Source of the DNA: Eledone cirrhosa
Taxonomy: Eukaryota
Assembly (NCBI GenBank): GCA_964016885.1
Contig: OZ024740.1
Coordinates: forward strand, 33,604,001 to 33,668,000
Direction of reading: 5' to 3'
Length of the DNA stretch: 64,000 nt
Shown piece after piece: positions 3,193 through 64,000 of the stretch. Within the stretch, counting starts at the first letter, position 1. The number at the start of each line of letters is the position of its first letter. The position numbers were made by a program, and so were the translations under genes. The notes under the pieces were generated by a model. The model was not told the origin of the DNA. It saw nothing but the letters and a program-made list of their open reading frames with translations, and ran no database searches.

Positions 3193-14105
<10,913 letters not shown>

Positions 14106-14134
14106 CATAATGTGTATATATATATATACACATT

Positions 14135-26883: not shown

Positions 26884-27020
26884 TCAATCGTCCTGCTCCA
26901 TTGGTTTTACATCTTCTGAATTCTCTGTCTTGCTAGATGTCTGTTCATTCTCATTATCAGTTTCAAAATCTACTTCACTTACAGTTTCTCCTACCTCTGG
27001 GGCAGTCTCTTCTTCCTCAC
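26884..27020 (-). CDS. ACL4: Acl4-like TPR protein, terminal coding exon (acidic tail GEEEETAPEV...MEQDD*)
   Basis: Acceptor at 27021-22, phase 1 matching the previous exon, TGA at 26884-86. Confidence 0.75.
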
Positions 27021-27544: not shown

Positions 27545-27620
27545 CAGGTCCAACTTTTTCTATCATTTCCTGAATATGTTTTAGCATTTCAGGATCATCA
27601 AATTCAACCTTTTGGTATGT
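27545..27620 (-). CDS. ACL4: Acl4-like exon (TYQKVEFDDPEMLKHIQEMIEKVGP)
   Basis: AG/GT bounded, 76 nt, phase 0 to phase 1. Confidence 0.8.
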
Positions 27621-29774: not shown

Positions 29775-29939
29775 CTTGAGAGCATTCTGTAAGTATTCTC
29801 TGGCATTAGTAAGACAATCTTCTGCTTCATCTCCTTTACGTTTGGAACTCTCCAATACAGCAGCATATCCCATCAAATACCAGACATGAGGGTCTTCGTC
29901 TGTTTCATCTAATAACGTGAACAAAACTTCATTGGCTGT
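29775..29939 (-). CDS. ACL4: Acl4-like exon (TANEVLFTLLDETDEDPHVWYLMGY...AREYLQNALK)
   Basis: AG/GT bounded, 165 nt, phase 0/0. The LL...DE...VWYL.G motif is typical of the family. Confidence 0.85.
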
Positions 29940-31277: not shown

Positions 31278-31331
31278 AAACTTGAAAATGATAAAAAAAT
31301 GTCAGAAAATCAAACGTTTTGTGTCATCTGT

Positions 31332-31610
31332 TTAACCTGTTGACTGCCGCGTATATTTTACATAGCTACAGTTGCTGTGCCAGGGTTTTTTCCAGTAAAA
31401 TGTCTATTTTGATTGACAAACGTCACATCAATAAACTAGAAACCCCATCTAGCTTTGAAGTTATGAACTGTTGGAAAAGAGTTCATAACTTTGAAGTTAT
31501 GAACTGTTGGAAAAGAGTTCAAACATGTTAGGACGAGTTATCTCATTCGTGGCACTGGAATGCATACATGTTAGGATGAGTTATCTCATCTACGGCACTG
31601 AAGAAGTTGA
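31332..31610. mobile_element. Degenerate TTAA-type MITE with internal duplications
   Basis: ttaacctgttgactgcc ... ggcactgaagaagttga ends, a duplicated gagttatctcat motif and a ~37-bp tandem duplication. Confidence 0.4.
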
Positions 31611-31813: not shown

Positions 31814-31885
31814 CTCGTACAGTTCAAGTTCAATGAGTATCTTAGAAGTCACAATTCTGGTGTCATAGCTCACACCTGGCATATT
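31814..31885 (-). CDS. ACL4: Acl4-like exon (NMPGVSYDTRIVTSKILIELELYE); its 5' end is the terminal unit of the tandem array
   Basis: Acceptor tttacAG at 31886-87 and donor GT at 31812-13; 72 nt, phase 0/0. It fits between the ..WLPQ.. exon and the TANEVL exon. Confidence 0.8.
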
Positions 31886-33845
31886 CTGTAAATATAGAAT
31901 ATAGTACATAGTATATGGTGTCATAGCTCACACCTGGCATATTCTGTAAATATAGTATATGGTGTCATAGCTCACACCTGGCATATTCTGTAAATATAGT
32001 ATATGGTGTCATAGCTCACACCTGGCATATTCTGTAAATATAGTATATGGTGTCATAGCTCACACCTGGCATATTCTGTAAATATAGAATATAGTGTCAT
32101 AGCTCACACCTGGCAATTTCTGTAAATATAGTATATGGTGTCATAGCTCACACCTGGCATATTCTGTAAATATAGTATATGGTGTCATAGCTCACACCTG
32201 GCATATTCTGTAAATATAGTATATGGTGTCATAGCTCACACCTGGCATATTCTGTAAATATAGAATATAGTGTCATAGCTCACACCTGGCATATTCTGTA
32301 AATATAGAATATAGTACATAGTATATGGTGTCATAGCTCACACCTGGCATATTCTGTAAATATAGAATATAGTGTCATAGCTCACACCTGGCATATTCTG
32401 TAAATATAGAATATAGTACATAGTATATGGTGCCATAGCTCACACCTGGCATATTCTGTAAATATAGAATATAGTACATAGTATATGGTGTCGTAGCTCA
32501 CACCTGGCATATTCTGTAAATATAGAATATAGTACATAGTATATGGTGTCATAGCTCACACCTGGCATATTCTGTAAATATAGTATATGGTGTCATAGCT
32601 CACACCTGGCATATTCTGTAAATATAGTATATGGTGTCATAGCTCACACCTGGCATATTCTGTAAATATAGTATATGGTGTCATAGCTCACACCTGGCAT
32701 ATTCTGTAAATATAGAATATAGTGTCATAGCTCACACCTGGCATATTCTGTAAATATAGAATATAGTACATAGTATATGGTGTCATAGCTCACACCTGGC
32801 ATATTCTGTAAATATAGTATATGGTGTCATAGCTCACACCCGGTATATTCTGTAAATATAGTATATAGTGTCATAGCTCACACCTGGCATATTCTGTAAA
32901 TATAGTATATAGTGTCATAGCTCACACCTGGCATATTCTGTAAATATAGTATATAGTGTCATAGCTCACACCTGGCATATTCTGTAAATATAGTATATAG
33001 TGTCATAGCTCACACCTGGCATATTCTGTAAATATAGAATATAGTGTCATAGCTCACACCTGGCATATTCTGTAAATATAGAATATAGTGTCATAGCTCA
33101 CACCTGGCATATTCTGTAAATATAGAATATAGTACATAGTATATAGTGTCATAGCTCACACCTGGCATATTCTGTAAATATAGTATATAGTACATAGTAT
33201 ATGGTGTCATAGCTCACACCTGGCATATTCTGTAAATATAGTATATGGTGTCATAGCTCACACCTGGCATATTCTGTAAATATAGAATATAGTACATAGT
33301 ATATGGTGTCATAGCTCACACCTGGCATATTCTGTAAATATAGTATATGGTGTCATAGCTCACACCTGGCATATTCTGTAAATATAGTATATAGTGTCAT
33401 AGCTCACACCTGGCATATTCTGTAAATATAGTATATAGTGTCATAGCTCACACCTGGCATATTCTGTAAATATAGTATATAGTGTCATAGCTCACACCTG
33501 GCATATTCTGTAAATATAGTATATAGTGTCATAGCTCACACCTGGCATATTCTGTAAATATAGAATATAGTACATAGTATATGGTGTCATAGCTCACACC
33601 TGGCATATTCTGTAAATATAGTATATAGTGTCGTAGATTACACCTGGCATATTCTGTAAATATAGTATATAGTGTCATAGCTCACACCTGGCATATTCTG
33701 TAAATATAGTATATAGTGTCATAGCTCACACCTGGCATATTCTGTAAATATAGTATATAGTGTCATAGCTCACACCTGGCATATTCTGTAAATATAGTAT
33801 ATAGTGTCGTAGATTACACCTGGCATATTCTGTAAATATAGAATA
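31859..33845 (-). repeat. Tandem array of 42 units (43 or 55 bp) consisting of a 3' splice site plus the first ~27 nt of the exon
   Basis: Minus-strand unit tatactatatttacag|AATATGCCAGGTGTGAGCTATGACAC; copies counted by hand. Confidence 0.92.
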
Positions 33846-34075
33846 CACACTAAATACGGTATAACTTTTAAATAAACTAAATAAAATGTCAACTGAATAT
33901 GAAGACATTACTACTATATACAGAATTTACCATGTTTTCTTACGAGAGAAATATATAGAACCATAAATCTTCAGCTTGTCTAAAAGGTAGCACAATATTG
34001 AGGTTATTGAAATATTTCTTTGATACTAATTATACAACATTCATTACTCTGGTTTCCATACAGTTAAATCTACTA

Positions 34076-34608
34076 GAGACATGTACCACTGTCACTCATC
34101 AGGCATCACTCCAGACACGTACTAGTCATTCATCAGGTATCACTCGAGACATATACCAGTCACTCATCAGGCATCACTCCAGACACGTACTAGTCATTCA
34201 TCAAGCATCACTCAAGACATGTACCACTGTCACTCATCAGGCATCACTCCAGACACGTACCAGTCATTCATCAGGTATCACTCGAGACATGTAGCACTGT
34301 CACTCATCAGGCATCACTCGAGACATGTACCAGTCACTCATCAGGCATCACTCAAGACATGTAGCAGTCATTCATCAGGTATCACTTAAGGCATGTACCA
34401 CTGTCACTCATCAGGCATCACTCAAGACATGTACCAGTCATTCATCAGGTTTCACTCGAGACATATACCACTGTCACTCATCAAGCATCAGTCAAGACAT
34501 GTACCAGTCATTCATCAGGTATCACTGTCACTCATCAGGCATCACTCAAGACATGTACCAGTCATTTATCAGGTATCACTCGAGACATGTACCACTGTCA
34601 CACATCAG
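34076..34608. repeat. Minisatellite of interspersed 34- and 36-bp units, ~15 copies
   Basis: gacatgtaccactgtcactcatcaggcatcactc(a/c)a alternating with gacacgtaccagtcattcatcaggtatcactcga. Confidence 0.85.
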
Positions 34609-35029
34609 TTGTTACTTTTTCAGAATTTTGGTAAAAGGAATTTAATTTTTCATGACACCAATAAAAGCTCCATCAACTTATCCCCCCTCCCACCCACACT
34701 TGATGTGTTCCCAGAACATCAGCACCCCATCCCCCCGAGTTCTCTCTCAAGCTCTTCCCAAAACCACCCCCACCCCTGAAGTTCCCTCTCAACATGATAT
34801 TGTTCTGCTCCATATCAGTCCTGATTCAACAGACATTCAAGTCACGACTAATCTAATCTTTTATTCAAACATAATATAACTAGGACTTGATTTGAGTGAG
34901 ATTTGGCTACTATTTCAGATAGGTCAAGCAATCACAGAAAAACAGTCTCAGCTCCTACTTTTCCTAGAGATAACAGAAGACCTGACTTCCCACGGGTACA
35001 AGCTGAAGCATATAGACAATATGCTCCCA

Positions 35030-35210
35030 CTGCAAAAAAGCACCCAGCACTCACTGTAAATAAGGTTGGTATTAGGAAGGGCATCCAGCCAGAATCAGTT
35101 CCCATATGAGCAAGACAAGGTCAGCCAACCGGACACTGCCTACAACAGGACACCTGTCTAACCCATGCTAGTGTGGAAGAACGGACGTAAAACGGTGATG
35201 ATGATGATGA
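35030..35210 (+). mobile_element. RTE 3'UTR-only fragment with (GAT)n tail
   Basis: Reverse-complement match to 1248-1440. Confidence 0.75.
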
Positions 35211-35725
35211 CAATCTAAGGATATTCAAACTGACCATCAACTTCATCTCAATCTCACCAGTCTAGAGCTTCTTGAAGAAAGTCAATGGTGCTACCTTCCC
35301 TCTTCTGGCTAATTCATAAAAATAAACATAAACCAAAGATGTGGGTTCATGTCAATACCCATCCTTTTTTTTCCATTCAGAGGGTTTTTTTTAAATACTA
35401 ACAGACTAATTCTATGTAGTCAAATACAGAGTAAGCACATGTTACTACCTAATTTTCAAATTTGCTAGCCATTTGTAAACAAAGCCTGCTTTGTGTCTCC
35501 CTGTTTATATAAACCCAATTGTTTTGCCTTTAAATAGAGTTTAGTGTACTGTAGTATGAAGGTGAAACAATTGGTTTTATTTTCATCAGTATAGTATATA
35601 TTTGATAGGATATTTCTATATTTTCCAGGAAGTTACATATCCAGCTTTAATTACATTATATATTATCTTTTTTACTTAAAACTTTCCATTTGTGTAAGAT
35701 AGTATGATTGAAATATGAAACTAAC

Positions 35726-35803
35726 TTCTGGTATGTCATCATCATTTTCTTGCAACTGAGGGAGCCATAAAGATACACTTTTTTCAATCATTTCTTTGGC
35801 ATC
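35726..35803 (-). CDS. ACL4: Acl4-like exon (DAKEMIEKSVSLWLPQLQENDDDIPE)
   Basis: AG/GT bounded, 78 nt, phase 0/0. Confidence 0.82.
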
Positions 35804-37277: not shown

Positions 37278-40200
37278 CACATACATATATCATCATCATC
37301 ATCAGGTTTAGCGTCCGTGTTCCACGCTTGCATGGGTTTGGACGGGGGTTTTCCCACTTGAGGCAAGAGTGGTTGTCTTGCTCGCATAGGACTGTCTGGC
37401 GGGTTTTCTACAGTTGGATGTCCTTCCTAACACCAACCACATTTACAGTGTGGGTCTGGGAGGTTTTTACCGTGTTGCCTACACGGCCACATTACAGCGT
37501 GGACTGTCTGGCGGGTTTTCTACAGCTGGATGCCCTTCCTAACACCAACCACATTTACAGTGTGGGGCTGGGAGGTTTTTACCGTGTTGCCTACACGGCC
37601 ACATTACAGCGTGGACTGTGTGTTTTTTGTCGTGACACCTACACGATCTCATTTGTTTCGGCCTGGATGTTGTGGGACCAACATAACTGTACATTGAAAG
37701 GGGCGGTGTGGATGGGGTGGAGGTGGTGGGACGGGGGGGTGTTTTGATAGAGATGCCTACTGACTGTAGTAGGTTTTTACTTTGTATTTAGGTAAGGCGG
37801 GTCTTCTCTATTACTGAGTACCGCCAAAGGTCTCGGTCCAGTGACATTGTCTTGGAGAGGTGTAAGCGTGTGAGGTCGGAATTTATCAGCTCGTCCCATG
37901 TTTTTCTGGGTCTGCCTACTCCGTGGCTACCGTCTATCTTTATTGCCCTGCACTTTGTTATACAGCTGTCGTCTTTCATGCGCATCACGTGACCGTACCA
38001 ACGTAGCCTTCTCTCGAGTAAACAACATCTGATCCCTCTTATTTCTAATTTTTTCCTTAGTTCGTTTATGCTTTGCCGTTCACGTATATTACTATTGCAC
38101 ATCCAGCGGAGCATGCAAGCTTCGTTCCTCTCTAGTCTGCGTATATCCTCTGCACACAATGCCCAGGTCTCACTGCCATGCAGCATTGCTGTTCGTATGC
38201 AGGCATCGTATAACCTGCCTTTCATTTTTAGGGAGAACCCTCTAGCGGCTAATAGTGGTATAAGCTCTCTGAACTTTTTCCATCCAGTTCTGACTCTAGC
38301 TACTGTACTTTCAGAGCACCCTCCCCCACTGCTGATTTTGTCACCCAGGTAACGGAAGCTGTCCACTATTTCTATAGAACCCTCTGCGCAGTTGAAGGAG
38401 CTAGTATTTTGTGGGCACTTGCTGCTACTTATTGCACCAGAGCACCGGCCACATGTAAAATCTATGTTCTTAGTTAGCTTACCTGTGATCCCACTACATC
38501 TTTTATGCACCCATACTTTGCATTTGGGACATAAAATGGAGTTTCTACCTACGCCTTTCCCACACACTGAGCATGGCCATTTCCCAGATGGGACTGCCGC
38601 CATATTTTCTTTCCTACAAACTAGAACTTTAGTCTTAGCCAGGTTAATTTTAAGGCCTTTTGATTCTAGGCCGTGCTTCCATGTTTGGAATTTCTTCTCT
38701 AGTTCGGTCATTGATTCAGCTATGAGCGTTAGATCATCTGCGTATAGGAGTTCCCATGGGCAGCCGGTCTTGAACTCCTCTGTTATAGCCTGAAGGGCAA
38801 TAATAAATAGTAGGGGGCTAAGAACAGAGCCCTGATGGACACCAACTTTTACGCTAAACTCTTCACTATATTCGTTGTTAATTCTAACCTTACTGACTGT
38901 TTCTTTATACATGGCTTGTATAGCTCTCACAAGCCATTCGTCAACACCTAGTTTTCTAAGAGACCACCAGATAATGGAACGGGGGACTCTGTTGAAGGCT
39001 TTCTCCAAGTCGACGAAAGCTAAGTATAGGGGTTTACTTTTAGCTAGGCACTTCTCCTGTAGTTGTCGTACAATGAAAAGAGCGTCTGTGGTACTTTTGC
39101 CTGACACAAATCCGAACTGCATTTCATCTAGATCAATTCTCTCTCTGATTAGTTGCGCTATTACTTTTTCCGTGACCTTCATGACCTGGTCGATTAATTT
39201 AATGCCTCTATAGTTACTCCTATCTAGGGCATCTCCTTTTCCCTTATAGCAGTTAACGATGATGCTGCTACGCCAGTCCTTCGGAACAACCCCATTCTGT
39301 ACGACTTGGTTAACTATCCGGGTGACCATGGTGTGTCCCACCGAACCAGATGCCTTCAGCATCTCAGCAACTATTTCCGAAGGACCAGCCGCCTTACCCG
39401 TCTTCATATCTTTGATTGCCTTGCTTATTGTACTACCCTGGACTAACACTGCTGGTCCCTCTATTGGGTCGATGTGGGGGAGACTGTCTTTCTCCCATTT
39501 GTTCTCTTCATTTAGAAGCCTTTCGTAGTGACACTTCCAAGCTACCTTCTTATCAGCGTCGGTGATGGCAAGTATGCCATCATCGTTAAGCACACACTTC
39601 TCCCCGACAATATCACGGTTTTCCTTGACACATTGCCTGGCAATCCTGAACACCTCACGTTTCTGGTCCTCACGTTGTAGAACATGCTTGAACTTTCTTT
39701 CCTCTGCTTCCCTTCTTGCGAAGTACACTTGTCTCCTAGCTTCCCTCCTGGCCACTTGATAGTCTTCTCTACTTCCCCCATCCCGCCATGCTTTCCAAGC
39801 CTGCTTTTTGGCCTTAATTGACTCCTCCACCTTACTGTTCCACCACCATGTTACTCTCCTCCTACCTACAGGCCTGCTCCAGCCACAGACTTCGTCTGCC
39901 GCCGTCAGCAGGTTTGCTCTCAGGAATTCCCACTGTTCCTCTATATTATACGACTCTAATTGCTCTTCCTTACTGTCGAAAGCGTCAAGTAATATGCTTT
40001 GAAATTTATTTCTGGCTATGGGGTCCTTTAGCTTCCATATTTTTCTCCTGATGATAGTCCTCTTCCGCTGTCTAGTACGTCTCGTCCTGACTATGAGGTC
40101 GCTAATTATCAGTCTATGTTGGGAGGTGAATTCTTCATGGGGGAGGGATTTAGTGTTAACAACAGACACTGTCACGTCTTCTGGTAAGGATATAATCTAC

Positions 40201-42260: not shown

Positions 42261-42384
42261 TTCAATTTTTTCAATGTTCATTAGAAACTGGGCTTTTAAT
42301 TGGAAGGCTTCTGGATTCTGAGGGTCAGCAGCTATGGCTTTCTCTACATTTTCTTGACATTTGTCAGCTGCTCCTTGCTCTAGG
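42261..42384 (-). CDS. ACL4: Acl4-like exon ([C]LEQGAADKCQENVEKAIAADPQNPEAFQLKAQFLMNIEKIE), TPR
   Basis: AG/GT bounded, 124 nt, phase 2 to phase 0. Confidence 0.87.
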
Positions 42385-42588: not shown

Positions 42589-42704
42589 CATAAATCTGTC
42601 ATGTAAATCTCTGCAATGGCACAATAAGCTGATGAAATATCTCGTTCTGATGCAAAATATTCTATTTCAGGAGCTGTTGTAGTTCCTTCTGCTGCTTTAG
42701 AAAG
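42589..42704 (-). CDS. ACL4: Acl4-like exon (LSKAAEG...DISSAYCAIAEIYMTDL[C])
   Basis: AG/GT bounded, 116 nt. EIYMTDLC is the conserved Acl4-family motif as I recall it. Confidence 0.87.
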
Positions 42705-44176: not shown

Positions 44177-44323
44177 CTCACTATTTAATTCTTTTTCCTT
44201 AAGCATAACTTCAATTCCTTTGAGGAAATACTGGACAGAGGATTCTCCTTGTTCTGTCTGTCCAAGGTACATATACTTGGCATGTCCAAGATCAGGTTGA
44301 CATTCAACAGCTTTAAGAAAAAA
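44177..44323 (-). CDS. ACL4: Acl4-like exon (FFLKAVECQPDLGHAKYMYLGQTEQGESSVQYFLKGIEVM...), the most 5' exon in the window
   Basis: AG at 44324-25 and GT at 44175-76; 147 nt. GH.KY.YLGQ...G..S...F.KGI is typical of Acl4-like proteins. Confidence 0.87.
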
Positions 44324-44700: not shown

Positions 44701-47700
44701 CCATCAACCATCTTTACTGCTATCTTCCAACTCTCTCTTACCATCAACCATCTTTACTGCTATCTTCCAACTCTCTCTTACCATCAACCATCTTTACTGC
44801 TATCTTCTAACTCTCTCTTACCATCAACCATCTTTACTGCTATCTTCCAACTCTCTCTTACCATCAATCATCTTTACTGCTATCTTCCAACTCTCTCTTA
44901 CCGTCAACCATCTTTACTGCTACCTTCCAACTCTCACTTACCATCAACCATCTTTACTGCTATCTTCCAACTCTCTCTTACCATCAACCATCTTTACTGC
45001 TATCTTCCAACTCTCTCTTACCATCAACCATCTTTACTGCTATCTTCTAACTCTCTCTTACCATCAACCATCTTTACTGCTATCTTCCAACTCTCTCTTA
45101 CCATCAACCATCTTTACTGCTATCTTCCAACTCTCTCTTACCATCAACCATCTTTACTGCTATCTTCCAACTCTCTCTTACCATCAACCATCTTTACTGC
45201 TATCTTCCAACTCTCTCTTCCCATCAACCATCTTTACTGCTATCTTCCAACTGTCTCTAACCATCAACCATCTTTACTGCTATCTTCCAACTCTCTCTTA
45301 CCATCAACCATCTTTACTGCTAACTTCCAACTCTCTCTTACCAATAACCATCTTTACTGCTATCTTCTAACTCTCTCTTACCATCAACCATTTTTACTGC
45401 TATCTTCTAACTCTCTCTTACCATCAACCATCTTTACTGCTATCTTCCAACTCTCTCTTACCATCAACCATCTTTACTGCTATCTTCCAACTCTCTCTTA
45501 CCATCAACCATCTTTACTGCTATCTTCCAACTCTCTCTTCCCATCAACCATCTTTACTGCTATCTTCCAACTGTCTCTAACCATCAACCATCTTTACTGC
45601 TATCTTCCAACTCTCTCTTACCATCAACCATCTTTACTGCTAACTTCCAACTCTCTCTTACCAATAACCATCTTTACTGCTATCTTCTAACTCTCTCTTA
45701 CCATCAACCATTTTTACTGCTATCTTCTAACTCTCTCTTACCATCAACCATCTTTACTGCTATCTTCCAACTCTCTCTTACCATCAACCATCTTTACTGC
45801 TATCTTCTAACTCTCTCTTACCATCAACCATCTTTACTGCTACCTTCCAACTCTCTCTTACCATCAACCATCTTTACTGCTATCTTCTAACTCTCTCTTA
45901 CCATCAACCATCTTTACTGCTATCTTCTAACTGTCTCTTACCATCAACCATCTTTACTGCTACCTTCCAACTCTCTCTTACCAATAACCATCTTTACTGC
46001 TAACTTCCAACTGCTATCTTCCAACTCTCTCTTATCATCAACCATCTTTACTGCTATCTTCCAACTCTCTCTTACCATCAACCATCTTTACTGCTATCTT
46101 CCAACTCTCTCTTACCATCAACCATCTTTACTGCTATCTTCCAACTCTCTCTTACCATCAACCATCTTTACTGCTACCTTCCAACTCACTCTTACCATCA
46201 ACCATCTTTACTGCTATCTTCCAACTCTCTCTTACCATCAACCATCTTTACTGCTATCTTCCAACTCTCTCTTACCAATAACCATCTTTACTGCTATCTT
46301 CTAACTCTCTCTTACCATCAACTGTCTTTACTGCTACCTTCCAACTCTCTCTTACCATCAACCATCTTTACTGCTATCTTCCAACTCTCTCTTACCATCA
46401 ACCATCTTTACTGCTACCTTCCAACTCTCTCTTACCATCAACCATCTTTACTGCTATCTTCCAACTCTCTCTTACCATCAACCATCTTTACTGCTATCTT
46501 CCAACTCTCTCTTACCATCAACCATCTTTACTGCTATCTTCCAACTCTCTCTTACCATCAACCATCTTTACTGCTATCTTCCAACTCTCTCTTACCATCA
46601 ACCATCTTTACTGCTACCTTCCAACTCACTCTTACCATCAACCATCTTTACTGCTATCTTCCAACTCTCTCTTACCATCAACCATCTTTACTGCTATCTT
46701 CCAACTCTCTCTTACCATCAACCATCTTTACTGCTATCTTCCAACTCTCTCTTACCAATAACCATCTTTACTGCTATCTTCTAACTCTCTCTTACCATCA
46801 ACCATCTTTACTGCTATCTTCTAACTCTCTCTTACCATCAACCATCTTTACTGCTATCTTCTAACTCTCTCTTACCATCAACCATCTTTACTGCTATCTT
46901 CTAACTGTCTCTTACCATCAACCATCTTTACTGCTACCTTCCAACTCTCTCTTACCAATAACCATCTTTACTGCTAACTTCCAACTGCTATCTTCCAACT
47001 CTCTCTTACCATCAACCATCTTTACTGCTATCTTCCAACTCTCTCTTACCAATAACCATCTTTACTGCTATCTTCTAACTCTCTCTTACCATCAACTGTC
47101 TTTACTGCTACCTTCCAACTCTCTCTTACCATCAACCATCTTTACTGCTATCTTCCAACTCTCTCTTACCATCAACCATCTTTACTGCTACCTTCCAACT
47201 CTCTCTTACCATCAACCATCTTTACTGCTATCTTCCAACTCTCTCTTACCATCAACCATCTTTTCTGCTACCTTCCAACTCTCTCTCTTACCATCAACCA
47301 TCTTTACTGCTATCTTCCCACTCTCTCTTACCATCAACCATCTTTACTGCTATCTTCTAACTCTCTCTTACCATCAACCATCTTTACTGCTATCTTCCAA
47401 CTCTCTCTTACCATCAACCATCTTTACTGCTATCTTCCAACTCTCTCTTACCATCAACCATCTTTACTGCTATCTTCCAACTCTCTCTTACCATCAATCA
47501 TCTTTACTGCTATCTTCCAACTCTCTCTTACCGTCAACCATCTTTACTGCTACCTTCCAACTCTCACTTACCATCAACCATCTTTACTGCTATCTTCCAA
47601 CTCTCTCTTACCAATAACCATCTTTACTGCTATCTTCCAACTCTCTCTTACCATCAACCATCTTTACTGCTATCTTCTAACTCTCTCTTACCATCAACCA

Positions 47701-50700
47701 TCTTTACTGCTACCTTCCAACTCTCTCTTACCAATAACCCTCTTTACTGCTATCTTCCAACTCTCTCTTACCATCAACCATCTTTACTGCTATCTTCCAA
47801 CTCTCTCTTACCATCAACCATCTTTACTGCTATCTTCCAACTCTCTCTTACCATCAACCATCTTTACTGCTATCTTCTAACTCTCTCTTACCATCAACCA
47901 TCTTTACTGCTACCTTCCAACTCTCTCTTACCATCAACCATCTTTACTGCTATCTTCTAACTCTCTCTCTTACCATCAACCATCTTTACTGCTATCTTCT
48001 AACTCTCTCTCTTACCATCAACCATCTTTACTGCTATCTTCCAACTGTCTCTTACCATCAACCATCTTTACTGCTATCTTCTAACTCTCTCTTACCATCA
48101 ACCATCTTTACTGCTATCTTCCAACTCTCTCTTACCATCAACCATCTTTACTGCTATCTTCCAACTCTCTCTTACCATCAACCATCTTTACTGCTATCTT
48201 CCAACTGTCTCTAACCATCAACCATCTTTACTGCTATCTTCCAACTCTCTCTTACCATCAACCATCTTTACTGCTATCTTCCAACGCTCTCTTACCATCA
48301 ACCATCTTTACTGCTATCTTCCAACTCTCTCTTACCAATAACCATCTTTACTGCTATCCTCTAACTCTCTCTTACCATCAACCATCTTTACTGCTATCTT
48401 CCAACTCTCTCTTACCGTCAACCATCTTTACTGCTATCTTCCAACTCTCTCTTACCAATAACCATCTTTACTGCTATCTTCCAACTCTCTCTTACCAATA
48501 ACCATCTTTACTGCCATCTTCCAACTCTCTCTTACCATCAACCATCTTTTCTGCTATCTTCCAACTCTCTCTCTTACCATCAACCCTCTTTACTGCTATC
48601 TTCCAACTCTCTCTTACCATCAACCATCTTTACTGCTATCTTCTAACTCTCTCTTACCATCAACCATCTTTACTGCTATCTTCCAACTCTCTCTCTTACC
48701 ATCAACCATCTTTACTGCTATCTTCTAACTCTCTCTTACCATCAACCATCTTTACTGCTATCTTCCAACTCTCTCTTACCATCAACCATCTTTACTGCTA
48801 TCTTCCAACTCTCTCTTACCATCAACCATCTTTACTGCTACCTTCCAACTCACTCTTACCATCAACCATCTTTACTGCTATCTTCCAACTCTCTCTTACC
48901 ATCAACCATCTTTACTGCTATCTTCCAACTCTCTCTTACCAATAACCATCTTTACTGCTATCTTCTAACTCTCTCTTACCATCAACTGTCTTTACTGCTA
49001 CCTTCCAACTCTCTCTTACCATCAACCATCTTTACTGCTATCTTCCAACTCTCTCTTACCATCAACCATCTTTACTGCTACCTTCCAACTCTCTCTTACC
49101 ATCAACCATCTTTACTGCTATCTTCCAACTCTCTCTTACCATCAACCATCTTTACTGCTATCTTCCAACTCTCTCTTACCATCAACCATCTTTACTGCTA
49201 TCTTCCAACTCTCTCTTACCAATAACCATCTTTACTGCTATCTTCTAACTCTCTCTTACCATCAACCATCTTTACTGCTATCTTCCAACTCTCTCTTACC
49301 AATAACCATCTTTACTGCCATCTTCCAACTCTCTCTTACCATCAACCATCTTTTCTGCTACCTTCCAACTCTCTCTCTTACCATCAACCATCTTTACTGC
49401 TATCTTCCCACTCTCTCTTACCATCAACCATCTTTACTGCTATCTTCTAACTCTCTCTTACCATCAACCATCTTTACTGCTATCTTCCAACTCTCTCTTA
49501 CCATCAACCATCTTTACTGCTATCTTCCAACTCTCTCTTACCATCAACCATCTTTACTGCTATCTTCCAACTCTCTCTTACCATCAATCATCTTTACTGC
49601 TATCTTCCAACTCTCTCTTACCGTCAACCATCTTTACTGCTACCTTCCAACTCTCACTTACCATCAACCATCTTTACTGCTATCTTCCAACTCTCTCTTA
49701 CCATCAACCATCTTTACTGCTATCTTCTAACTCTCTCTTACCATCAACCATCTTTACTGCTACCTTCCAACTCTCTCTTACCATCAACCATCTTTACTGC
49801 TATCTTCTAACTCTCTCTTACCATCAACCATCTTTACTGCTATCTTCTAACTCTCTCTTACCATCAACCATCTTTACTGCTATCTTCCAACTCTCTCTTA
49901 CCATCAACCATCTTTACTGCCATCTTCCAACTCTCTCTTACCATCAACCATCTTTACTGCTATCTTCCAACTCTCTCTTACCATCAACCATCTTTACTGC
50001 TACCTTCCAACTCTCTCTTACCAATAACCATCTTTACTGCTATCTTCTAACTCTCTCTTACCATCAACCATCTTTACTGCTACCTTCCAACTCTCTCTTA
50101 CCATCAACCATCTTTACTGCTAACTTCCAACTCTCTCTTACCAATAACCATCTTTACTGCTATCTTCTAACTCTCTCTCTTACCATCAACCATCTTTACT
50201 GCTATCTTCCAACTCTCTCTTACCATCAACCATCTTTACTGCTATCTTCCAACTCTCTCTTACCAATAACCCTCTTTACTGCTATCTTCTAACTCTCTCT
50301 TACCATCAACCATCTTTACTGCTATCTTCAAACTCTCTCTTACCATCAACCATCTTTACTGCTATCTTCCAACTCTCTCTCACCAATAACCATCTTTACT
50401 GCCATCTTCCAACTCTCTCTTACCATCAACCATCTTTTCTGCTATCTTCCAACTCTCTCTTACCAATAACCATCTTTACTGCTATCTTCCAACTCTCTCT
50501 CTTACCATCAACCATCTTTACTGCTATCTTCCAACCGTCTCTTACCATCAACCATCTTTACTGCTACCTTCCAACTCTCTCTTACCATCAACCATCTTTA
50601 CTGCTATCCTCTAACTCTCTCTTACCATCAACCATCTTTTCTGCTATCTTCCAACTCTCTCTCTTACCATCAACCATCTTTACTGCTATCTTCCAACTCT

Positions 50701-53700
50701 CTCTCTTACCATCTTTACTGCTATCTTCTAACTCTCTCTTACCATCAACCATCTTTACTGCTATCTTCCAACTCTCTCTCTTACCATCAACCATCTTTAC
50801 TGCTATCTTCTAACTCTCTCTTACCATCAACCATCTTTACTGCTATCTTCCAACTCTCTCTTACCATCAACCATCTTTACTGCTATCTTCCAACTCTCTC
50901 TTACCATCAACCATCTTTACTGATATCTTCCAACTCTCTCTTACCAATAACCATCTTTACTGCTATCTTCTAACTCTCTCTTACCAATAACCATCTTTAC
51001 TGCTATCTTCCAACTCTCTCTCTTACCATCAACCATCTTTACTGCTATCTTCCAACTCTCTCTTACCATCAACCATCTTTACTGATATCTTCCAACTCTC
51101 TCTTACCAATAACCATCTTTACTGATATCTTCCAACTCTCTCTTACCAATAACCATCTTTACTGCTATCTTCCAACTCTCTCTCTTACCATCAACCATCT
51201 TTACTGCTATCTTCCAACCGTCTCTTACCATCAACCATCTTTACTGCTACCTTCCAACTCTCTCTTACCATCAACCATCTTTACTGCTATCTTCTAACTC
51301 TCTCTTACCATCAACCATCTTTACTGCTATCTTCCAACTCTCTCTTACCATCAACCATCTTTACTGCTATCTTCCAACTGTCTCTTACCATCAACCATCT
51401 TTACTGCTATCTTCCAACTGTCTCTTACCATCAACCATCTTTACTGCTATCTTCCAACTCTCTCTTACCATCAACCATCTTTACTGCTATCTTCCAACTG
51501 TCTCTAACCATCAACCATCTTTACTGCTATCTTCCAACTCTCTCTTACCATCAACCATCTTTACTGCTATCTTCCAACGCTCTCTTACCATCAACCATCT
51601 TTACTGCTATCTTCCAACTCTCTCTTACCAATAACCATCTTTACTGCTATCCTCTAACTCTCTCTTACCATCAACCATCTTTACTGCTATCTTCCAACTC
51701 TCTCTTACCGTCAACCATCTTTACTGCTATCTTCCAACTCTCTCTTACCAATAACCATCTTTACTGCTATCTTCCAACTCTCTCTTACCAATAACCATCT
51801 TTACTGCCATCTTCCAACTCTCTCTTACCATCAACCATCTTTTCTGCTATCTTCCAACTCTCTCTCTTACCATCAACCCTCTTTACTGCTATCTTCCAAC
51901 TCTCTCTTACCATCAACCATCTTTACTGCTATCTTCTAACTCTCTCTTACCATCAACCATCTTTACTGCTATCTTCCAACTCTCTCTCTTACCATCAACC
52001 ATCTTTACTGCTATCTTCTAACTCTCTCTTACCATCAACCATCTTTACTGCTACCTTCCAACTCTCTCTTACCATCAACCATCTTTACTGCTATCTTCCA
52101 ACTCTCTCTTACCAATAACCATCTTTACTGCTATCTTCCAACTCTCTCTTACCATCAACCATCTTTACTGCTATTTTCCAACTCTCTCTTACCATCAACC
52201 ATCTTTACTGCTATCTTCCAACTCTCTCTTACCATCAACTATCTTTACTGCTATCTTCCAACTCTCTCTTACCATCAACCATCTTTACTGCTACCTTCCA
52301 AGTCTCTCTTACCATCAACCATCTTTACTGCTATCTTCCAACTCTCTCTTACCATCAACCATCTTTACTGCTATCTTCCAACTCTCTCTTACCATCAACT
52401 ATCTTTACTGCTATCTTCCAACTCTCTCTTACCATCAACCATCTTTACTGCTAACTTCCAACTCTCTCTTACCAATAACCATCTTTACTGCTATCTTCCA
52501 ACTCTCTCTTACCATCAACCATCTTTACTGCTATCTTCCAACTCTCTCTTACCATCAACCATCTTTACTGCTATCTTCCAACTCTCTCTTACCATCAACC
52601 ATCTTTACTGCTATCTTCCAACTCTCTCTTACCATCAACCATCTTTACTGCTATCTTCCAACTCTCTCTTACCATCAACCATCTTTACTGCTATCTTCCA
52701 ACTCTCTCTTACCATCAATCATCTTTACTGCTATCTTCCAACTCTCTCTTACCGTCAACCATCTTTACTGCTACCTTCCAACTCTCACTTACCATCAACC
52801 ATCTTTACTGCTATCTTCCAACTCTCTCTTACCATCAACCATCTTTACTGCTATCTTCCAACTCTCTCTTACCATCAACCATCTTTACTGCTATCTTCCA
52901 ACTCTCTCTTACCATCAACCATCTTTACTGCTATCTTCCAACTCTCTCTTACCATCAATCATCTTTACTGCTATCTTCCAACTCTCTCTTACCGTCAACC
53001 ATCTTTACTGCTACCTTCCAACTCTCACTTACCATCAACCATCTTTACTGCTATCTTCCAACTCTCTCTTACCATCAACCATCTTTACTGCTATCTTCCA
53101 ACTCTCTCTTACCATCAACCATCTTTACTGCTATCTTCCAACTCTCTCTTACCATCAACCATCTTTACTGCTATCTTCCAACTCTCTCTTACCATCAACC
53201 ATCTTTACTGCTATCTTCTAACTCTCTCTTACCATCAACCATCTTTACTGCTACCTTCCAACTCTCTCTTACCATCAACCATCTTTACTGCTATCTTCTA
53301 ACTCTCTCTTACCATCAACCATCTTTACTGCTATCTTCTAACTCTCTCTTACCATCAACCATCTTTACTGCTATCTTCCAACTCTCTCTTACCATCAACC
53401 ATCTTTACTGCCATCTTCCAACTCTCTCTTACCATCAACCATCTTTACTGCTATCTTCCAACTCTCTCTTACCATCAACCATCTTTACTGCTACCTTCCA
53501 ACTCTCTCTTACCAATAACCATCTTTACTGCTATCTTCTAACTCTCTCTTACCATCAACCATCTTTACTGCTACCTTCCAACTCTCTCTTACCATCAACC
53601 ATCTTTACTGCTAACTTCCAACTCTCTCTTACCAATAACCATCTTTACTGCTATCTTCTAACTCTCTCTCTTACCATCAACCATCTTTACTGCTATCTTC

Positions 53701-56700
53701 CAACTCTCTCTTACCATCAACCATCTTTACTGCTATCTTCCAACTCTCTCTTACCAATAACCCTCTTTACTGCTATCTTCTAACTCTCTCTTACCATCAA
53801 CCATCTTTACTGCTATCTTCAAACTCTCTCTTACCATCAACCATCTTTACTGCTATCTTCCAACTCTCTCTCACCAATAACCATCTTTACTGCCATCTTC
53901 CAACTCTCTCTTACCATCAACCATCTTTTCTGCTATCTTCCAACTCTCTCTTACCAATAACCATCTTTACTGCTATCTTCCAACTCTCTCTCTTACCATC
54001 AACCATCTTTACTGCTATCTTCCAACCGTCTCTTACCATCAACCATCTTTACTGCTACCTTCCAACTCTCTCTTACCATCAACCATCTTTACTGCTATCC
54101 TCTAACTCTCTCTTACCATCAACCATCTTTTCTGCTATCTTCCAACTCTCTCTCTTACCATCAACCATCTTTACTGCTATCTTCCAACTCTCTCTCTTAC
54201 CATCTTTACTGCTATCTTCTAACTATCTCTTACCATCAACCATCTTTACTGCTATCTTCCAACTCTCTCTCTTACCATCAACCATCTTTACTGCTATCTT
54301 CTAACTCTCTCTTACCATCAACCATCTTTACTGCTATCTTCCAACTCTCTCTTACCATCAACCATCTTTACTGCTATCTTCCAACTCTCTCTTACCATCA
54401 ACCATCTTTACTGATATCTTCCAACTCTCTCTTACCAATAACCATCTTTACTGCTATCTTCTAACTCTCTCTTACCAATAACCATCTTTACTGCTATCTT
54501 CCAACTCTCTCTCTTACCATCAACCATCTTTACTGCTATCTTCCAACTCTCTCTTACCATCAACCATCTTTACTGATATCTTCCAACTCTCTCTTACCAA
54601 TAACCATCTTTACTGATATCTTCCAACTCTCTCTTACCAATAACCATCTTTACTGCTATCTTCCAACTCTCTCTCTTACCATCAACCATCTTTACTGCTA
54701 TCTTCCAACCGTCTCTTACCATCAACCATCTTTACTGCTACCTTCCAACTCTCTCTTACCATCAACCATCTTTACTGCTATCTTCTAACTCTCTCTTACC
54801 ATCAACCATCTTTACTGCTATCTTCCAACTCTCTCTTACCATCAACCATCTTTACTGCTATCTTCCAACTGTCTCTTACCATCAACCATCTTTACTGCTA
54901 TCTTCCAACTGTCTCTTACCATCAACCATCTTTACTGCTATCTTCCAACTCTCTCTTACCATCAACCATCTTTACTGCTATCTTCCAACTGTCTCTAACC
55001 ATCAACCATCTTTACTGCTATCTTCCAACTCTCTCTTACCATCAACCATCTTTACTGCTATCTTCCAACGCTCTCTTACCATCAACCATCTTTACTGCTA
55101 TCTTCCAACTCTCTCTTACCAATAACCATCTTTACTGCTATCCTCTAACTCTCTCTTACCATCAACCATCTTTACTGCTATCTTCCAACTCTCTCTTACC
55201 GTCAACCATCTTTACTGCTATCTTCCAACTCTCTCTTACCAATAACCATCTTTACTGCTATCTTCCAACTCTCTCTTACCAATAACCATCTTTACTGCCA
55301 TCTTCCAACTCTCTCTTACCATCAACCATCTTTTCTGCTATCTTCCAACTCTCTCTCTTACCATCAACCCTCTTTACTGCTATCTTCCAACTCTCTCTTA
55401 CCATCAACCATCTTTACTGCTATCTTCTAACTCTCTCTTACCATCAACCATCTTTACTGCTATCTTCCAACTCTCTCTCTTACCATCAACCATCTTTACT
55501 GCTATCTTCTAACTCTCTCTTACCATCAACCATCTTTACTGCTACCTTCCAACTCTCTCTTACCATCAACCATCTTTACTGCTATCTTCCAACTCTCTCT
55601 TACCAATAACCATCTTTACTGCTATCTTCCAACTCTCTCTTACCATCAACCATCTTTACTGCTATTTTCCAACTCTCTCTTACCATCAACCATCTTTACT
55701 GCTATCTTCCAACTCTCTCTTACCATCAACTATCTTTACTGCTATCTTCCAACTCTCTCTTACCATCAACCATCTTTACTGCTACCTTCCAAGTCTCTCT
55801 TACCATCAACCATCTTTACTGCTATCTTCCAACTCTCTCTTACCATCAACCATCTTTACTGCTATCTTCCAACTCTCTCTTACCATCAACTATCTTTACT
55901 GCTATCTTCCAACTCTCTCTTACCATCAACCATCTTTACTGCTAACTTCCAACTCTCTCTTACCAATAACAGCTTTACTGCTATCTTCCAACTCTCTCTT
56001 ACCATCAACCATCTTTACTGCTATCTTCCAACTCTCTCTTACCATCAACCATCTTTACTGCTATCTTCCAACTCTCTCTTACCATCAACCATCTTTACTG
56101 CTATCTTCCAACTCTCTCTTACCATCAACCATCTTTACTGCTATCTTCCAACTCTCTCTTACCATCAACCATCTTTACTGCTATCTTCCAACTCTCTCTT
56201 ACCATCAATCATCTTTACTGCTATCTTCCAACTCTCTCTTACCGTCAACCATCTTTACTGCTACCTTCCAACTCTCACTTACCATCAACCATCTTTACTG
56301 CTATCTTCCAACTCTCTCTTACCATCAACCATCTTTACTGCTATCTTCCAACTCTCTCTTACCATCAACCATCTTTACTGCTATCTTCCAACTCTCTCTT
56401 ACCATCAACCATCTTTACTGCTATCTTCCAACTCTCTCTTACCATCAATCATCTTTACTGCTATCTTCCAACTCTCTCTTACCGTCAACCATCTTTACTG
56501 CTACCTTCCAACTCTCACTTACCATCAACCATCTTTACTGCTATCTTCCAACTCTCTCTTACCATCAACCATCTTTACTGCTATCTTCCAACTCTCTCTT
56601 ACCATCAACCATCTTTACTGCTATCTTCCAACTCTCTCTTACCATCAACCATCTTTACTGCTATCTTCCAACTCTCTCTTACCATCAACCATCTTTACTG

Positions 56701-59700
56701 CTATCTTCCAACTCTCTCTTACCAATAACCCTCTTTACTGCTATCTTCTAACTCTCTCTTACCATCAACCATCTTTACTGCTATCTTCCAACTCTCTCTT
56801 ACCAATAACCCTCTTTACTGCTATCTTCTAACTCTCTCTTACCATCAACCATCTTTACTGCTATCTTCCAACTCTCTCTTACCATCAACCATCTTTACTG
56901 CTATCTTCCAACTCTCTCTTACCATCAACCATCTTTACTGCTATCTTCCAACTCTCTCTTACCATCAACCATCTTTACTGCTATCTTCCAACTCTCTCTT
57001 ACCATCAACCATCTTTACTGCTATCTTCCAACTCTCTCTTACCATCAATCAACTTTACTGCTATCTTCCAACTCTCTCTTACCGTCAACCATCTTTACTG
57101 CTACCTTCCAACTCTCACTTACCATCAACCATCTTTACTGCTATCTTCCAACTCTCTCTTACCATCAACCATCTTTACTGCTATCTTCCAACTCTCTCTT
57201 ACCATCAACCATCTTTACTGCTATCTTCCAACTCTCTCTTACCATCAACCATCTTTACTGCTATCTTCCAACTCTCTCTTACCATCAATCATCTTTACTG
57301 CTATCTTCCAACTCTCTCTTACCGTCAACCATCTTTACTGCTACCTTCCAACTCTCACTTACCATCAACCATCTTTACTGCTATCTTCCAACTCTCTCTT
57401 ACCATCAACCATCTTTACTGCTATCTTCCAACTCTCTCTTACCATCAACCATCTTTACTGCTATCTTCCAACTCTCTCTTACCATCAACCATCTTTACTG
57501 CTATCTTCCAACTCTCTCTTACCATCAACAATCTTTACTGCTATCTTCCAACTCTCTCTTACCAATAACCCTCTTTACTGCTATCTTCTAACTCTCTCTT
57601 ACCATCAACCATCTTTACTGCTATCTTCCAACTCTCTCTTACCAATAACCCTCTTTACTGCTATCTTCTAACTCTCTCTTACCATCAACCATCTTTACTG
57701 CTATCTTCCAACTCTCTCTTACCATCAACCATCTTTACTGCTATCTTCCAACTCTCTCTTACCAATAACCCTCTTTACTGCTATCTTCTAACTCTCTCTT
57801 ACCATCAACCATCTTTACTGCTATCTTCCAACTCTCTCTTACCAATAACCCTCTTTACTGCTATCTTCTAACTCTCTCTTACCATCAACCATCTTTACTG
57901 CTATCTTCCAACTCTCTCTTACCAATAACCCTCTTTACTGCTACCTTCCAACTCTCACTTACCATCAACCATCTTTACTGCTATCTTCCAACTCTCTCTT
58001 ACCATCAACCATCTTTACTGCTATCTTCCAACTCTCTCTTACCAATAACCCTCTTTACTGCTATCTTCTAACTCTCTCTTACCATCAACCATCTTTACTG
58101 CTATCTTCCAACTCTCTCTTACCATCAACCATCTTTACTGCTATCTTCCAACTCTCTCTTACCATCAACCATCTTTACTGCTATCTTCCAACTCTCTCTT
58201 ACCAATAACCATCTTTACTGCTATCTTCTAACTCTCTCTTACCATCAACTGTCTTTACTGCTACCTTCCAACTCTCTCTTACCATCAACCATCTTTACTG
58301 CTATCTTCCAACTCTCTCTTACCATCAACCATCTTTACTGCTACCTTCCAACTCTCTCTTACCATCAACCATCTTTACTGCTATCTTCCAACTCTCTCTT
58401 ACCATCAACCATCTTTACTGCTATCTTCCAACTCTCTCTTACCATCAACCATCTTTACTGCTATCTTCCAACTCTCTCTTACCAATAACCATCTTTACTG
58501 CTATCTTCTAACTCTCTCTTACCATCAACCATCTTTACTGCTATCTTCCAACTCTCTCTTACCAATAACCATCTTTACTGCCATCTTCCAACTCTCTCTT
58601 ACCATCAACCATCTTTTCTGCTACCTTCCAACTCTCTCTCTTACCATCAACCATCTTTACTGCTATCTTCCCACTCTCTCTTACCATCAACCATCTTTAC
58701 TGCTATCTTCTAACTCTCTCTTACCATCAACCATCTTTACTGCTATCTTCCAACTCTCTCTTACCATCAACCATCTTTACTGCTATCTTCCAACTCTCTC
58801 TTACCAATAACCCTCTTTACTGCTATCTTCCAACTCTCTCTTACCATCAACCATCTTTACTGCTATCTTCCAACTCTCTCTTACCATCAACCATCTTTAC
58901 TGCTATCTTCCAACTCTCTCTTACCATCAACCATCTTTACTGCTATCTTCCAACTCTCTCTTACCATCAATCATCTTTACTGCTATCTTCCAACTCTCTC
59001 TTACCGTCAACCATCTTTACTGCTACCTTCCAACTCTCACTTACCATCAACCATCTTTACTGCTATCTTCCAACTCTCTCTTACCATCAACCATCTTTAC
59101 TGCTATCTTCCAACTCTCTCTTACCATCAACCATCTTTACTGCTATCTTCCAACTCTCTCTTACCATCAACCATCTTTACTGCTATCTTCCAACTCTCTC
59201 TTACCATCAACCATCTTTACTGCTATCTTCCAACTCTCTCTTACCAATAACCCTCTTTACTGCTATCTTCTAACTCTCTCTTACCATCAACCATCTTTAC
59301 TGCTATCTTCCAACTCTCTCTTACCAATAACCCTCTTTACTGCTATCTTCTAACTCTCTCTTACCATCAACCATCTTTACTGCTATCTTCCAACTCTCTC
59401 TTACCATCAATCATCTTTACTGCTATCTTCCAACTCTCTCTTACCGTCAACCATCTTTACTGCTACCTTCCAACTCTCACTTACCATCAACCATCTTTAC
59501 TGCTATCTTCCAACTCTCTCTTACCATCAACCATCTTTACTGCTATCTTCCAACTCTCTCTTACCATCAACCATCTTTACTGCTATCTTCCAACTCTCTC
59601 TTACCATCAACCATCTTTACTGCTATCTTCCAACTCTCTCTTACCATCAACCATCTTTACTGCTATCTTCCAACTCTCTCTTACCAATAACCCTCTTTAC

Positions 59701-62700: not shown

Positions 62701-64000
62701 ATCTTTACTGCTATCTTCCAACTCTCTCTTACCATCAATCATCTTTACTGCTATCTTCCAACTCTCTCTTACCGTCAACCATCTTTACTGCTACCTTCCA
62801 ACTCTCACTTACCATCAACCATCTTTACTGCTATCTTCCAACTCTCTCTTACCATCAACCATCTTTACTGCTATCTTCCAACTCTCTCTTACCATCAACC
62901 ATCTTTACTGCTATCTTCCAACTCTCTCTTACCATCAACCATCTTTACTGCTATCTTCCAACTCTCTCTTACCATCAACCATCTTTACTGCTATCTTCCA
63001 ACTCTCTCTTACCAATAACCCTCTTTACTGCTATCTTCTAACTCTCTCTTACCATCAACCATCTTTACTGCTATCTTCCAACTCTCTCTTACCAATAACC
63101 CTCTTTACTGCTATCTTCTAACTCTCTCTTACCATCAACCATCTTTACTGCTATTTTCCAACTCTCTCTTACCATCAACCATCTTTACTGCTATCTTCCA
63201 ACTCTCTCTTACCATCAACTATCTTTACTGCTATCTTCCAACTCTCTCTTACCATCAACCATCTTTACTGCTACCTTCCAAGTCTCTCTTACCATCAACC
63301 ATCTTTACTGCTATCTTCCAACTCTCTCTTACCATCAACCATCTTTACTGCTATCTTCCAACTCTCTCTTACCATCAACTATCTTTACTGCTATCTTCCA
63401 ACTCTCTCTTACCATCAACCATCTTTACTGCTAACTTCCAACTCTCTCTTACCAATAACAGCTTTACTGCTATCTTCCAACTCTCTCTTACCATCAACCA
63501 TCTTTACTGCTATCTTCCAACTCTCTCTTACCATCAACCATCTTTACTGCTATCTTCCAACTCTCTCTTACCATCAACCATCTTTACTGCTATCTTCCAA
63601 CTCTCTCTTACCATCAACCATCTTTACTGCTATCTTCCAACTCTCTCTTACCATCAACCATCTTTACTGCTATCTTCCAACTCTCTCTTACCATCAATCA
63701 TCTTTACTGCTATCTTCCAACTCTCTCTTACCGTCAACCATCTTTACTGCTACCTTCCAACTCTCACTTACCATCAACCATCTTTACTGCTATCTTCCAA
63801 CTCTCTCTTACCATCAACCATCTTTACTGCTATCTTCCAACTCTCTCTTACCATCAACCATCTTTACTGCTATCTTCCAACTCTCTCTTACCATCAACCA
63901 TCTTTACTGCTATCTTCCAACTCTCTCTTACCATCAATCATCTTTACTGCTATCTTCCAACTCTCTCTTACCGTCAACCATCTTTACTGCTACCTTCCAA
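44701..64000. repeat. 40-bp satellite (ccatcaaccatctttactgctatcttccaactctctctta), ~480 copies, running off the window end
   Basis: Directly visible. It is presumably intronic in the Acl4-like gene, whose start is not in the window. Confidence 0.97.

Follow-up and report, generated by a model that had tools for sequence, protein, structure and literature searches.

The window, that is, the whole stretch of 64,000 nucleotides of Eledone cirrhosa DNA that was analysed, carries on its minus strand exons A to H of a gene that, judged by homology over its full length, is an Acl4/TPR-type assembly chaperone of Rpl4. Exon F has matches in a 'probable assembly chaperone of rpl4' of Octopus sinensis and in the O. 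bimaculoides orthologue (96%), and in Argonauta (91%). The O. sinensis orthologue matches the solved fungal Acl4 (5tqb_B) across residues 41-352 with an E value of 6.5e-30, and TPR families are matched by the host protein. With the O. sinensis protein as query, ten exon matches were found, all on one contig and spanning residues 16-399, while the genome search located no exon for the first 15 residues; by sequence search the Acl4-like gene is single-copy. On the opposite strand, an ABC-transporter nucleotide-binding exon (PF00005; 16027-16182, + strand) belongs to a neighbour gene that converges on the Acl4-like gene.

All eight exons were placed by protein matches to the minus strand: A (the third matched coding exon, 44177..44323), B (42589..42704), C (42261..42384), D (78 nt, 35726..35803, with donor GAA|GTTAGT at 35725), E (31814..31885), F (165 nt, 29775..29939), G (27545..27620) and H (26884..27020, including the stop codon). 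Together they encode 304 sense codons and one terminal stop, and 277 of the 304 residues (91%) are those of O. sinensis. Exon E (72 nt, phase 0-0; NMPGVSYDTRIVTSKILIELELYE) has an acceptor of 7.2 bits and a donor of its own, GAG|GTATTT, of 5.4 bits. Its peptide of 24 residues is identical in O. sinensis, O. bimaculoides, Argonauta and one further homologue, another homologue differing at two residues; the exon is identical across three octopods and is therefore needed. In metagenome contigs, neither a protein query nor a degenerate pattern of exon E matched any orthologous DNA.

Several other repeats are present at this locus. Upstream of exon A, the intron that follows the second matched coding exon is about 289 kb long and consists almost entirely of one 40-bp satellite (window 44701-64000 continuing through G000:C1:33668001-33937022; about 7,200 copies if continuous), which covers 84-96% of each of 19 sampled 10-kb stretches. 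On the sense strand every satellite unit has a donor-like ATG|GTAAGA (9.0 bits) and no usable acceptor (best -6.9). This intron resembles the giant, satellite-filled introns of Drosophila Y genes (PMC11207136; PMC6508621), but lies in a single-copy ribosome-assembly gene. Elsewhere in the window there is an 11-kb (TA)n run of about 5,700 copies (3194-14128), and intron C-D harbours on the minus strand, at 37790-40140, what by eye is presumably a LINE reverse-transcriptase-like element. The unique part of intron D-E (33846..35725, minus strand) includes a separate 34-bp minisatellite at 34077-34608.

The downstream end of intron D-E is occupied by a minisatellite array (31886..33845, minus strand). 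When the window was split at each occurrence of the splice acceptor TTTACAG|AA, 42 copies were obtained on the minus strand, the first exon-like base lying at 33829 (AG 33831-30) and the final one at 31885 (AG 31887-86), a span of 1,944 bp. Each of the 41 upstream units comprises the first 27 bases of exon E together with 17 or 31 bases of the intron end; the first 27 nt of exon E itself form the last repeat copy. The preliminary description, which reported 42 copies of the acceptor and the first nine codons over roughly 1.95 kb, is confirmed in this respect, as is its statement that only the last copy completes the exon and only the first is joined to the unique intron: the splitting shows the unique remainder of exon E (to 31814) continuing from copy 42 alone, with the unique intron attached to copy 1. 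Its unit lengths of 43 and 55 bp need correction, since 31 of the 41 units measure 44 bp and the other ten 58 bp, the longer form having two additional 7-bp sub-repeats. The array is far above chance (TRF score 2497), and all 28 matches of a 181-bp array query sit at this one locus.

The units are very similar to one another. The exon part differs by a mean of 4% between pairs, and 37 of the 41 upstream units show zero or one difference to the final unit, with four differences in unit 1 and likewise in unit 5. Eleven sequence types are arranged in the blocky order ABBBACBBBBDCDEFGGBBBBHCGDDDCIJGCGDDDKDDDC, and amino-acid-changing variants occur in 5 of the 41 units. The acceptor is present in 42 of 42 units, whereas the AG|GT that had been described in every unit is intact in 41, the exception being unit 22 (CGG|GT). 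Similarly, the outermost unit (unit 1, 33786..33845, minus strand), which keeps the native upstream acceptor, has indeed diverged after the GT, but not alone, as its GTAATC variant (GTAATCTAC) occurs in unit 5 as well. Clustered changes of this kind are ordinary in the array, because paired changes are found in units 22 and 37 too.

Such an array is a 'mirage', a minisatellite lying across an intron/exon boundary, and this one is large and young-looking. It has tandem units that span the boundary, a unit of minisatellite size (10-160 bp in described cases), AG/GT signals in many units, and a homogenised interior with a divergent boundary unit. In amphioxus (PMC3087553), the term covers intron/exon boundaries repeated in tandem, which evolve in concert with divergent edges and leave splicing, assayed by RT-PCR, undisturbed. 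The octopod array is like the minisatellite-like copies of intron 3' end and exon start in amphioxus Adh3, BflGb6 and BflGb9, with their many AG/GT signals and homogenised interiors; it is unlike them in having 42 copies, compared with 3-6 in BflGb6, units of 44/58 bp rather than 150-160 bp (10-72 bp in Adh3), and a cephalopod host (PMC3087553). A cephalopod mirage was not found in the literature searched, which lay mostly outside subscription papers and supplements.

The repeat is present in raw data, because contig depth piles up over the units while the unique flank is covered unchanged. Contigs from three runs of one sample, possibly the assembled individual itself, match 31575/31579-31887 without differences and end at the acceptor; summed contig depth, which is not equivalent to copy number, reaches 140-1,244 over the units versus 6.6-9.9 on unique DNA. 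An assembly artefact is unlikely, given eleven unit types in a patterned order and a raw depth raised many-fold over the units. A search of sequencing runs listed no RNA run; as its query was largely intronic, RNA holding only exons would have stayed below the threshold, and the result carries no weight as to expression. Just 3' of exon E, at 31330-31610 of the window, lies a separate dispersed high-copy repeat with a summed contig depth of up to about 140,000.

Splice sites were scored with a position-weight model trained on this genome's own junctions, drawn from 600 kb over 16 myosin loci and set by protein continuity against 61 animal and fungal myosins; no named octopus myosin was among the 120 profile-search matches listed. 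Of 114 candidate junctions 80 were accepted, all GT-AG, microexons being undetectable by this procedure, and since the model is small and built on a single gene family the score ranks are rough. The unit donor CAG|GTGTGA reaches 7.5 bits, with 23 of 80 authentic donors lower; the version in units 1 and 5, CAG|GTGTAA, reaches 3.8 bits (4 of 80 lower) and is the weakest CAG|GT donor of the array. A second internal donor, GGT|GTGAGC, scores 2.5 bits, and its counterpart in units 1 and 5, GGT|GTAATC, -0.2 bits. At both positions the variant loses the +5 G that is present in 64 of 80 authentic donors. Exon E's own donor exceeds 9 of the 80. The best of the 42 acceptors is that of unit 1 (7.7 bits); nine, the final one included, share the 7.2 bits, and 25 of 42 lie at 4.1-5.1 bits. 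The CCAG at +10 scores 4.8 bits as an acceptor (7 of 80 authentic acceptors lower). At none of the 80 authentic acceptors does an AG occur in the 12 nt before the site, the nearest being 17 nt away, and the same upstream-AG exclusion zone is seen in humans (PMC9284458). An unused YAG inside the first 12 exon bases is found at 17 of 80 authentic junctions.

Folding predictions bear on the same sites. Exon positions +10 to +27 (31859..31876, minus strand) form an inverted repeat, GGTGT...ACACC, predicted to fold as a hairpin over the internal donor, and the repeat recurs in the upstream units with ACACC or ACACT at its 3' end. The predicted unpaired probability of the internal donor averages 0.006, against a median of 0.072 for authentic donors (n=80), of which three fall below 0.006. 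The real donor of exon E is also predicted to be mostly paired (unpaired probability 0.018), and the region as a whole folded no better than its shuffles (z -0.44).

Taken together, these data suggest that the last acceptor is probably still the one used, that the other 41 leave with the intron, and that the array is likely a tolerated passenger. Supporting this reading, the final acceptor scores above most internal ones and the locus is repeat-prone, with its other intronic minisatellites and its giant satellite intron. Counting against it, the internal donor outscores that of exon E and the unit 1 acceptor slightly outscores the last; exon E also scores low (summed 12.6, where control exons have a 5th percentile of 10.6 and a 10th of 14.7) amid dense decoys, candidate exons scoring at least as high numbering about 79 per kb in the array compared with 1.3 per kb across 112 kb of control intron sequence. 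The pairing predicted for the real donor, and the unremarkable folding of the region, likewise weigh on the negative side.

The array probably began as a short tandem duplication across the boundary, which took in the end of the intron plus 27 bases from the start of exon E and stopped at the 3' arm of the hairpin. Growth to 42 copies by slippage and unequal exchange is suggested by the blocky order of the unit types. Exon definition would then select the acceptor, with the donor of exon E and any enhancers in its unique 45 nt pairing with the nearest acceptor, while the internal AG|GT donors would stay quiet because they lie 10 nt into the unit and because base-pairing is predicted to cover them. 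Where an upstream acceptor was occasionally used and read through, a premature stop and subsequent decay would follow. The stops themselves are plain in the sequence, as read-through from every one of the 41 upstream acceptors to the exon E donor meets one, 19, 26 or 43 codons in, which bears out the frame shift and stop that had been described for reading through from an upstream copy.

Skipping of the upstream acceptors, which the preliminary description listed as one of three routes to an intact protein, appears the likely one: it fits best and has precedent in amphioxus and human genes. In a report on human boundary VNTRs (PMC1557585), the splice site is repeated 5-26 times in F7 IVS7, 6-16, CBS, LAMIN B2 and PDGF, and the authentic site dominates, as it may here; the authentic donor alone is used in F7, LAMIN B2 and PDGF, while in 6-16 and CBS two pseudo-sites are used beside the authentic one. 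The same text describes a globin duplication experiment in which the proximal copy was used and another study that found the opposite (PMC1557585). The human VNTRs differ, however, in repeating donors with the authentic copy first, whereas in the octopod array the repeated site is an acceptor and the authentic one stands at the end, being transcribed later than every decoy (PMC1557585).

Some chance, though a small one, attaches to an imprecise gain of exon and intron in progress. An upstream acceptor, best that of unit 1, would be joined to a donor within the array to give an in-frame cassette, either 54 nt encoding 18 residues or 12 nt encoding NMPG, the last acceptor would close the new intron, and a longer loop would appear in a sizeable share of the mRNA. 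Pairs of acceptor and donor inside the array yield 10-nt exons, which shift the frame, 12-nt exons, which are in frame and weak, and 54-nt exons; the stop-free in-frame 54-nt exons were missing from the earlier list of routes. All 30 of the 54-nt candidates, which run from one unit's acceptor to the next unit's donor, are stop-free and in frame, and 22 score at least as high as exon E. The best candidate cryptic exon (33776..33829, minus strand) extends from the unit 1 acceptor to the unit 2 donor, is open and in frame, and has a predicted score of 15.3 versus 12.6 for exon E. Cassettes of this type would use the first AG at both ends and so conform to the genome's acceptor rule. The insertion point falls in a loop of 16-72 residues across homologues and 23 in cephalopods (34 rows, two partial ones set aside), which is a gap against fungal Acl4; since this loop varies in length, an insert might be tolerated.

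A parallel to such cassettes is the RdRp intron gain of potato. There an intron/exon boundary was duplicated, the exonic portion of the duplicate carried a cryptic donor, a geometry similar to that of the octopod units, and a real intron resulted, backed by 106 junction reads (PMC4974935). Like that case, the octopod array has copies that cross the boundary and hold a frame-preserving cryptic donor (at 12 nt and 54 nt, not at 10 nt). It differs in that potato had one duplication, a strong GTAAG donor and RNA confirmation, compared with 41 copies and weaker donors, predicted to be masked, in the octopod array (PMC4974935).

Against the inclusion of cassettes in the octopod gene, the array donors are predicted to be masked by the hairpin, the 58-bp units cause frameshifts, and the inserted peptide would be aromatic where natural loops are acidic. 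The donors for the 12-nt exon are weak (2.5 and -0.2 bits); the NMPG microexon suggested for GGT|GTGAGC would be in frame. Matrix-scored pseudo-exons are, moreover, usually silent. Were the cassettes nevertheless used, the array would be a nascent exon factory, able to insert 30 in-frame 54-nt cassettes into a variable loop, in which copy number and unit order might set the mixture of normal, elongated and decay-bound mRNA and intron gain might be watched as a polymorphism; this is a minority possibility.

Less probable still is that the array damages splicing, whether because the 72-nt exon is skipped in frame or because most products contain a stop, and so marks a weak or silent allele, or else that its copy number has been inflated by assembly. 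A weak real exon amid many decoys would fit the first version, the satellite intron of about 289 kb in the same gene is a point in favour, and no array-spanning read or contig was seen in the one sample examined. However, this is the sole gene copy found, its frame is open and its sites are canonical, the raw depth over the units is many-fold higher, and their eleven types in patterned order are unlike what a collapsed or duplicated assembly would give.

Recursive removal, in which the exon D donor would join an internal CAG|GT, no exon would be kept, and the regenerated donor would in a later step reach the last TTTACAG, seems improbable. The AG and GT are adjacent, the regenerated donor would be GAA|GTGTGA, and the +10 acceptor outscores a few authentic ones. 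A recursive splice site is an AG|GT that follows a pyrimidine tract without other AGs, and most known examples come from very long introns; here, however, a further AG precedes the site by 10 nt, intron D-E measures just 3.8 kb, and the predicted hairpin covers the site.

Least probable of all is a precise intron gain, the preliminary description's AGGT route, in which a 10-nt microexon of unit 1 would be kept and the array would be spliced out between the CAG|GT of unit 1 and that of unit 42 to give an identical mRNA. Splicing would have to take the first AG at unit 1 yet, at unit 42, the one 10 nt further in, although both units share the same sequence from -16 to +14. The acceptor required would have an AG 10 nt upstream, which the upstream-AG rule (0 of 80) disfavours; in humans such AGs are depleted and disruptive (PMC9284458). 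Use of the first AG at unit 42 instead would shift the frame by 10. In its favour are the AG|GT of 41 units, the native intron and best acceptor retained by unit 1, and the in vivo support obtained elsewhere for the mechanism, according to a review of the AGGT model (PMC3443670). The octopod units share with the Rogers model the AG|GT within a duplicated unit, but the model duplicates purely exonic DNA, whereas these units cross the boundary and bring a native acceptor 10 nt before the AG that is needed (PMC3443670). By the upstream-AG rule, an indirect test, the downstream AG does not look usable as an acceptor, with that other AG ahead of it; the upstream GT of unit 1, the prospective donor, scores 3.8 bits, which exceeds 4 of 80 authentic donors, and is predicted to be paired. 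A point for this route is that the shared stretch of units 1 and 42 ends at +14 and all their differences come after it; each of the three changes private to unit 1 falls beyond the GT, outside the bases that this route would constrain (P 0.037 if independent, 0.35 if a single event, and post hoc in either case). The divergence of unit 1 had been put forward as a sign of intron gain; against this, the variant removes the +5 G, lowers the donor from 7.5 to 3.8 bits and is common to unit 5.

What the array means depends on which of these readings applies. As a silent passenger it would be of little importance beyond extending mirages to cephalopods and their recurrence in this genome. It would also offer a natural test of acceptor choice, with 41 near-identical decoys transcribed ahead of a weak real exon. 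Inclusion of cassettes from the array would make it an example, in an animal, of intron gain by boundary duplication caught early; an intron-gain model from boundary repeats has already been published for amphioxus (PMC3087553), and the formation of new introns from boundary repeats has been discussed for human paralogues (PMC2812944). In addition, the acceptor and first nine codons of a conserved exon are exposed to repeat turnover, because 5 of the 41 upstream units have amino-acid-changing variants.

Similar arrays occur elsewhere in the genome. Multi-copy boundary repeats were found at 2 of 422 control boundaries, made up of 160 myosin boundaries and 262 edges, the latter from 131 loci out of a further 169, namely those whose matches did not exceed 420 nt; two control hits (L216, L273), as well as a repeat of 2.4 copies of 24 bp that overlaps a donor in one myosin, are outside this count. 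The single clear case among the 160 myosin boundaries is a mirage at the acceptor of an exon for the myosin II rod (L075; G000:C27, first exon base near 18037669), with a 130-bp unit in 4.4 copies; three upstream copies have an acceptor identical to the real one, and nine exon bases match. The second is a decayed donor mirage with units of about 36 bp (L253 ~1680-2390; G000:C1:322457484-322460690), situated 3' of a kinase exon, which we take to be MAPK-like, with about 250 bp of unique DNA between. Extrapolated loosely, and from two events only, this frequency would correspond to hundreds or more boundary repeats genome-wide.

Other matches among the controls were set aside, being short chance matches inside an exon (L120, L236), a CT-rich intron repeat (L134) or a CA microsatellite (L202). 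At a further locus (L235; G000:C22:283216-286392, minus strand) the donor of a kinase exon and about 110 following bases are repeated once, 362 nt downstream, which is a single donor duplication and not an array. Several myosin exons are traversed, together with their introns, by open frames of 823-1,179 codons (G000:C18:36957815-36961258, C2:18980830-18982542 and C3:145268933-145271344); these are probably simple-repeat introns without stops.
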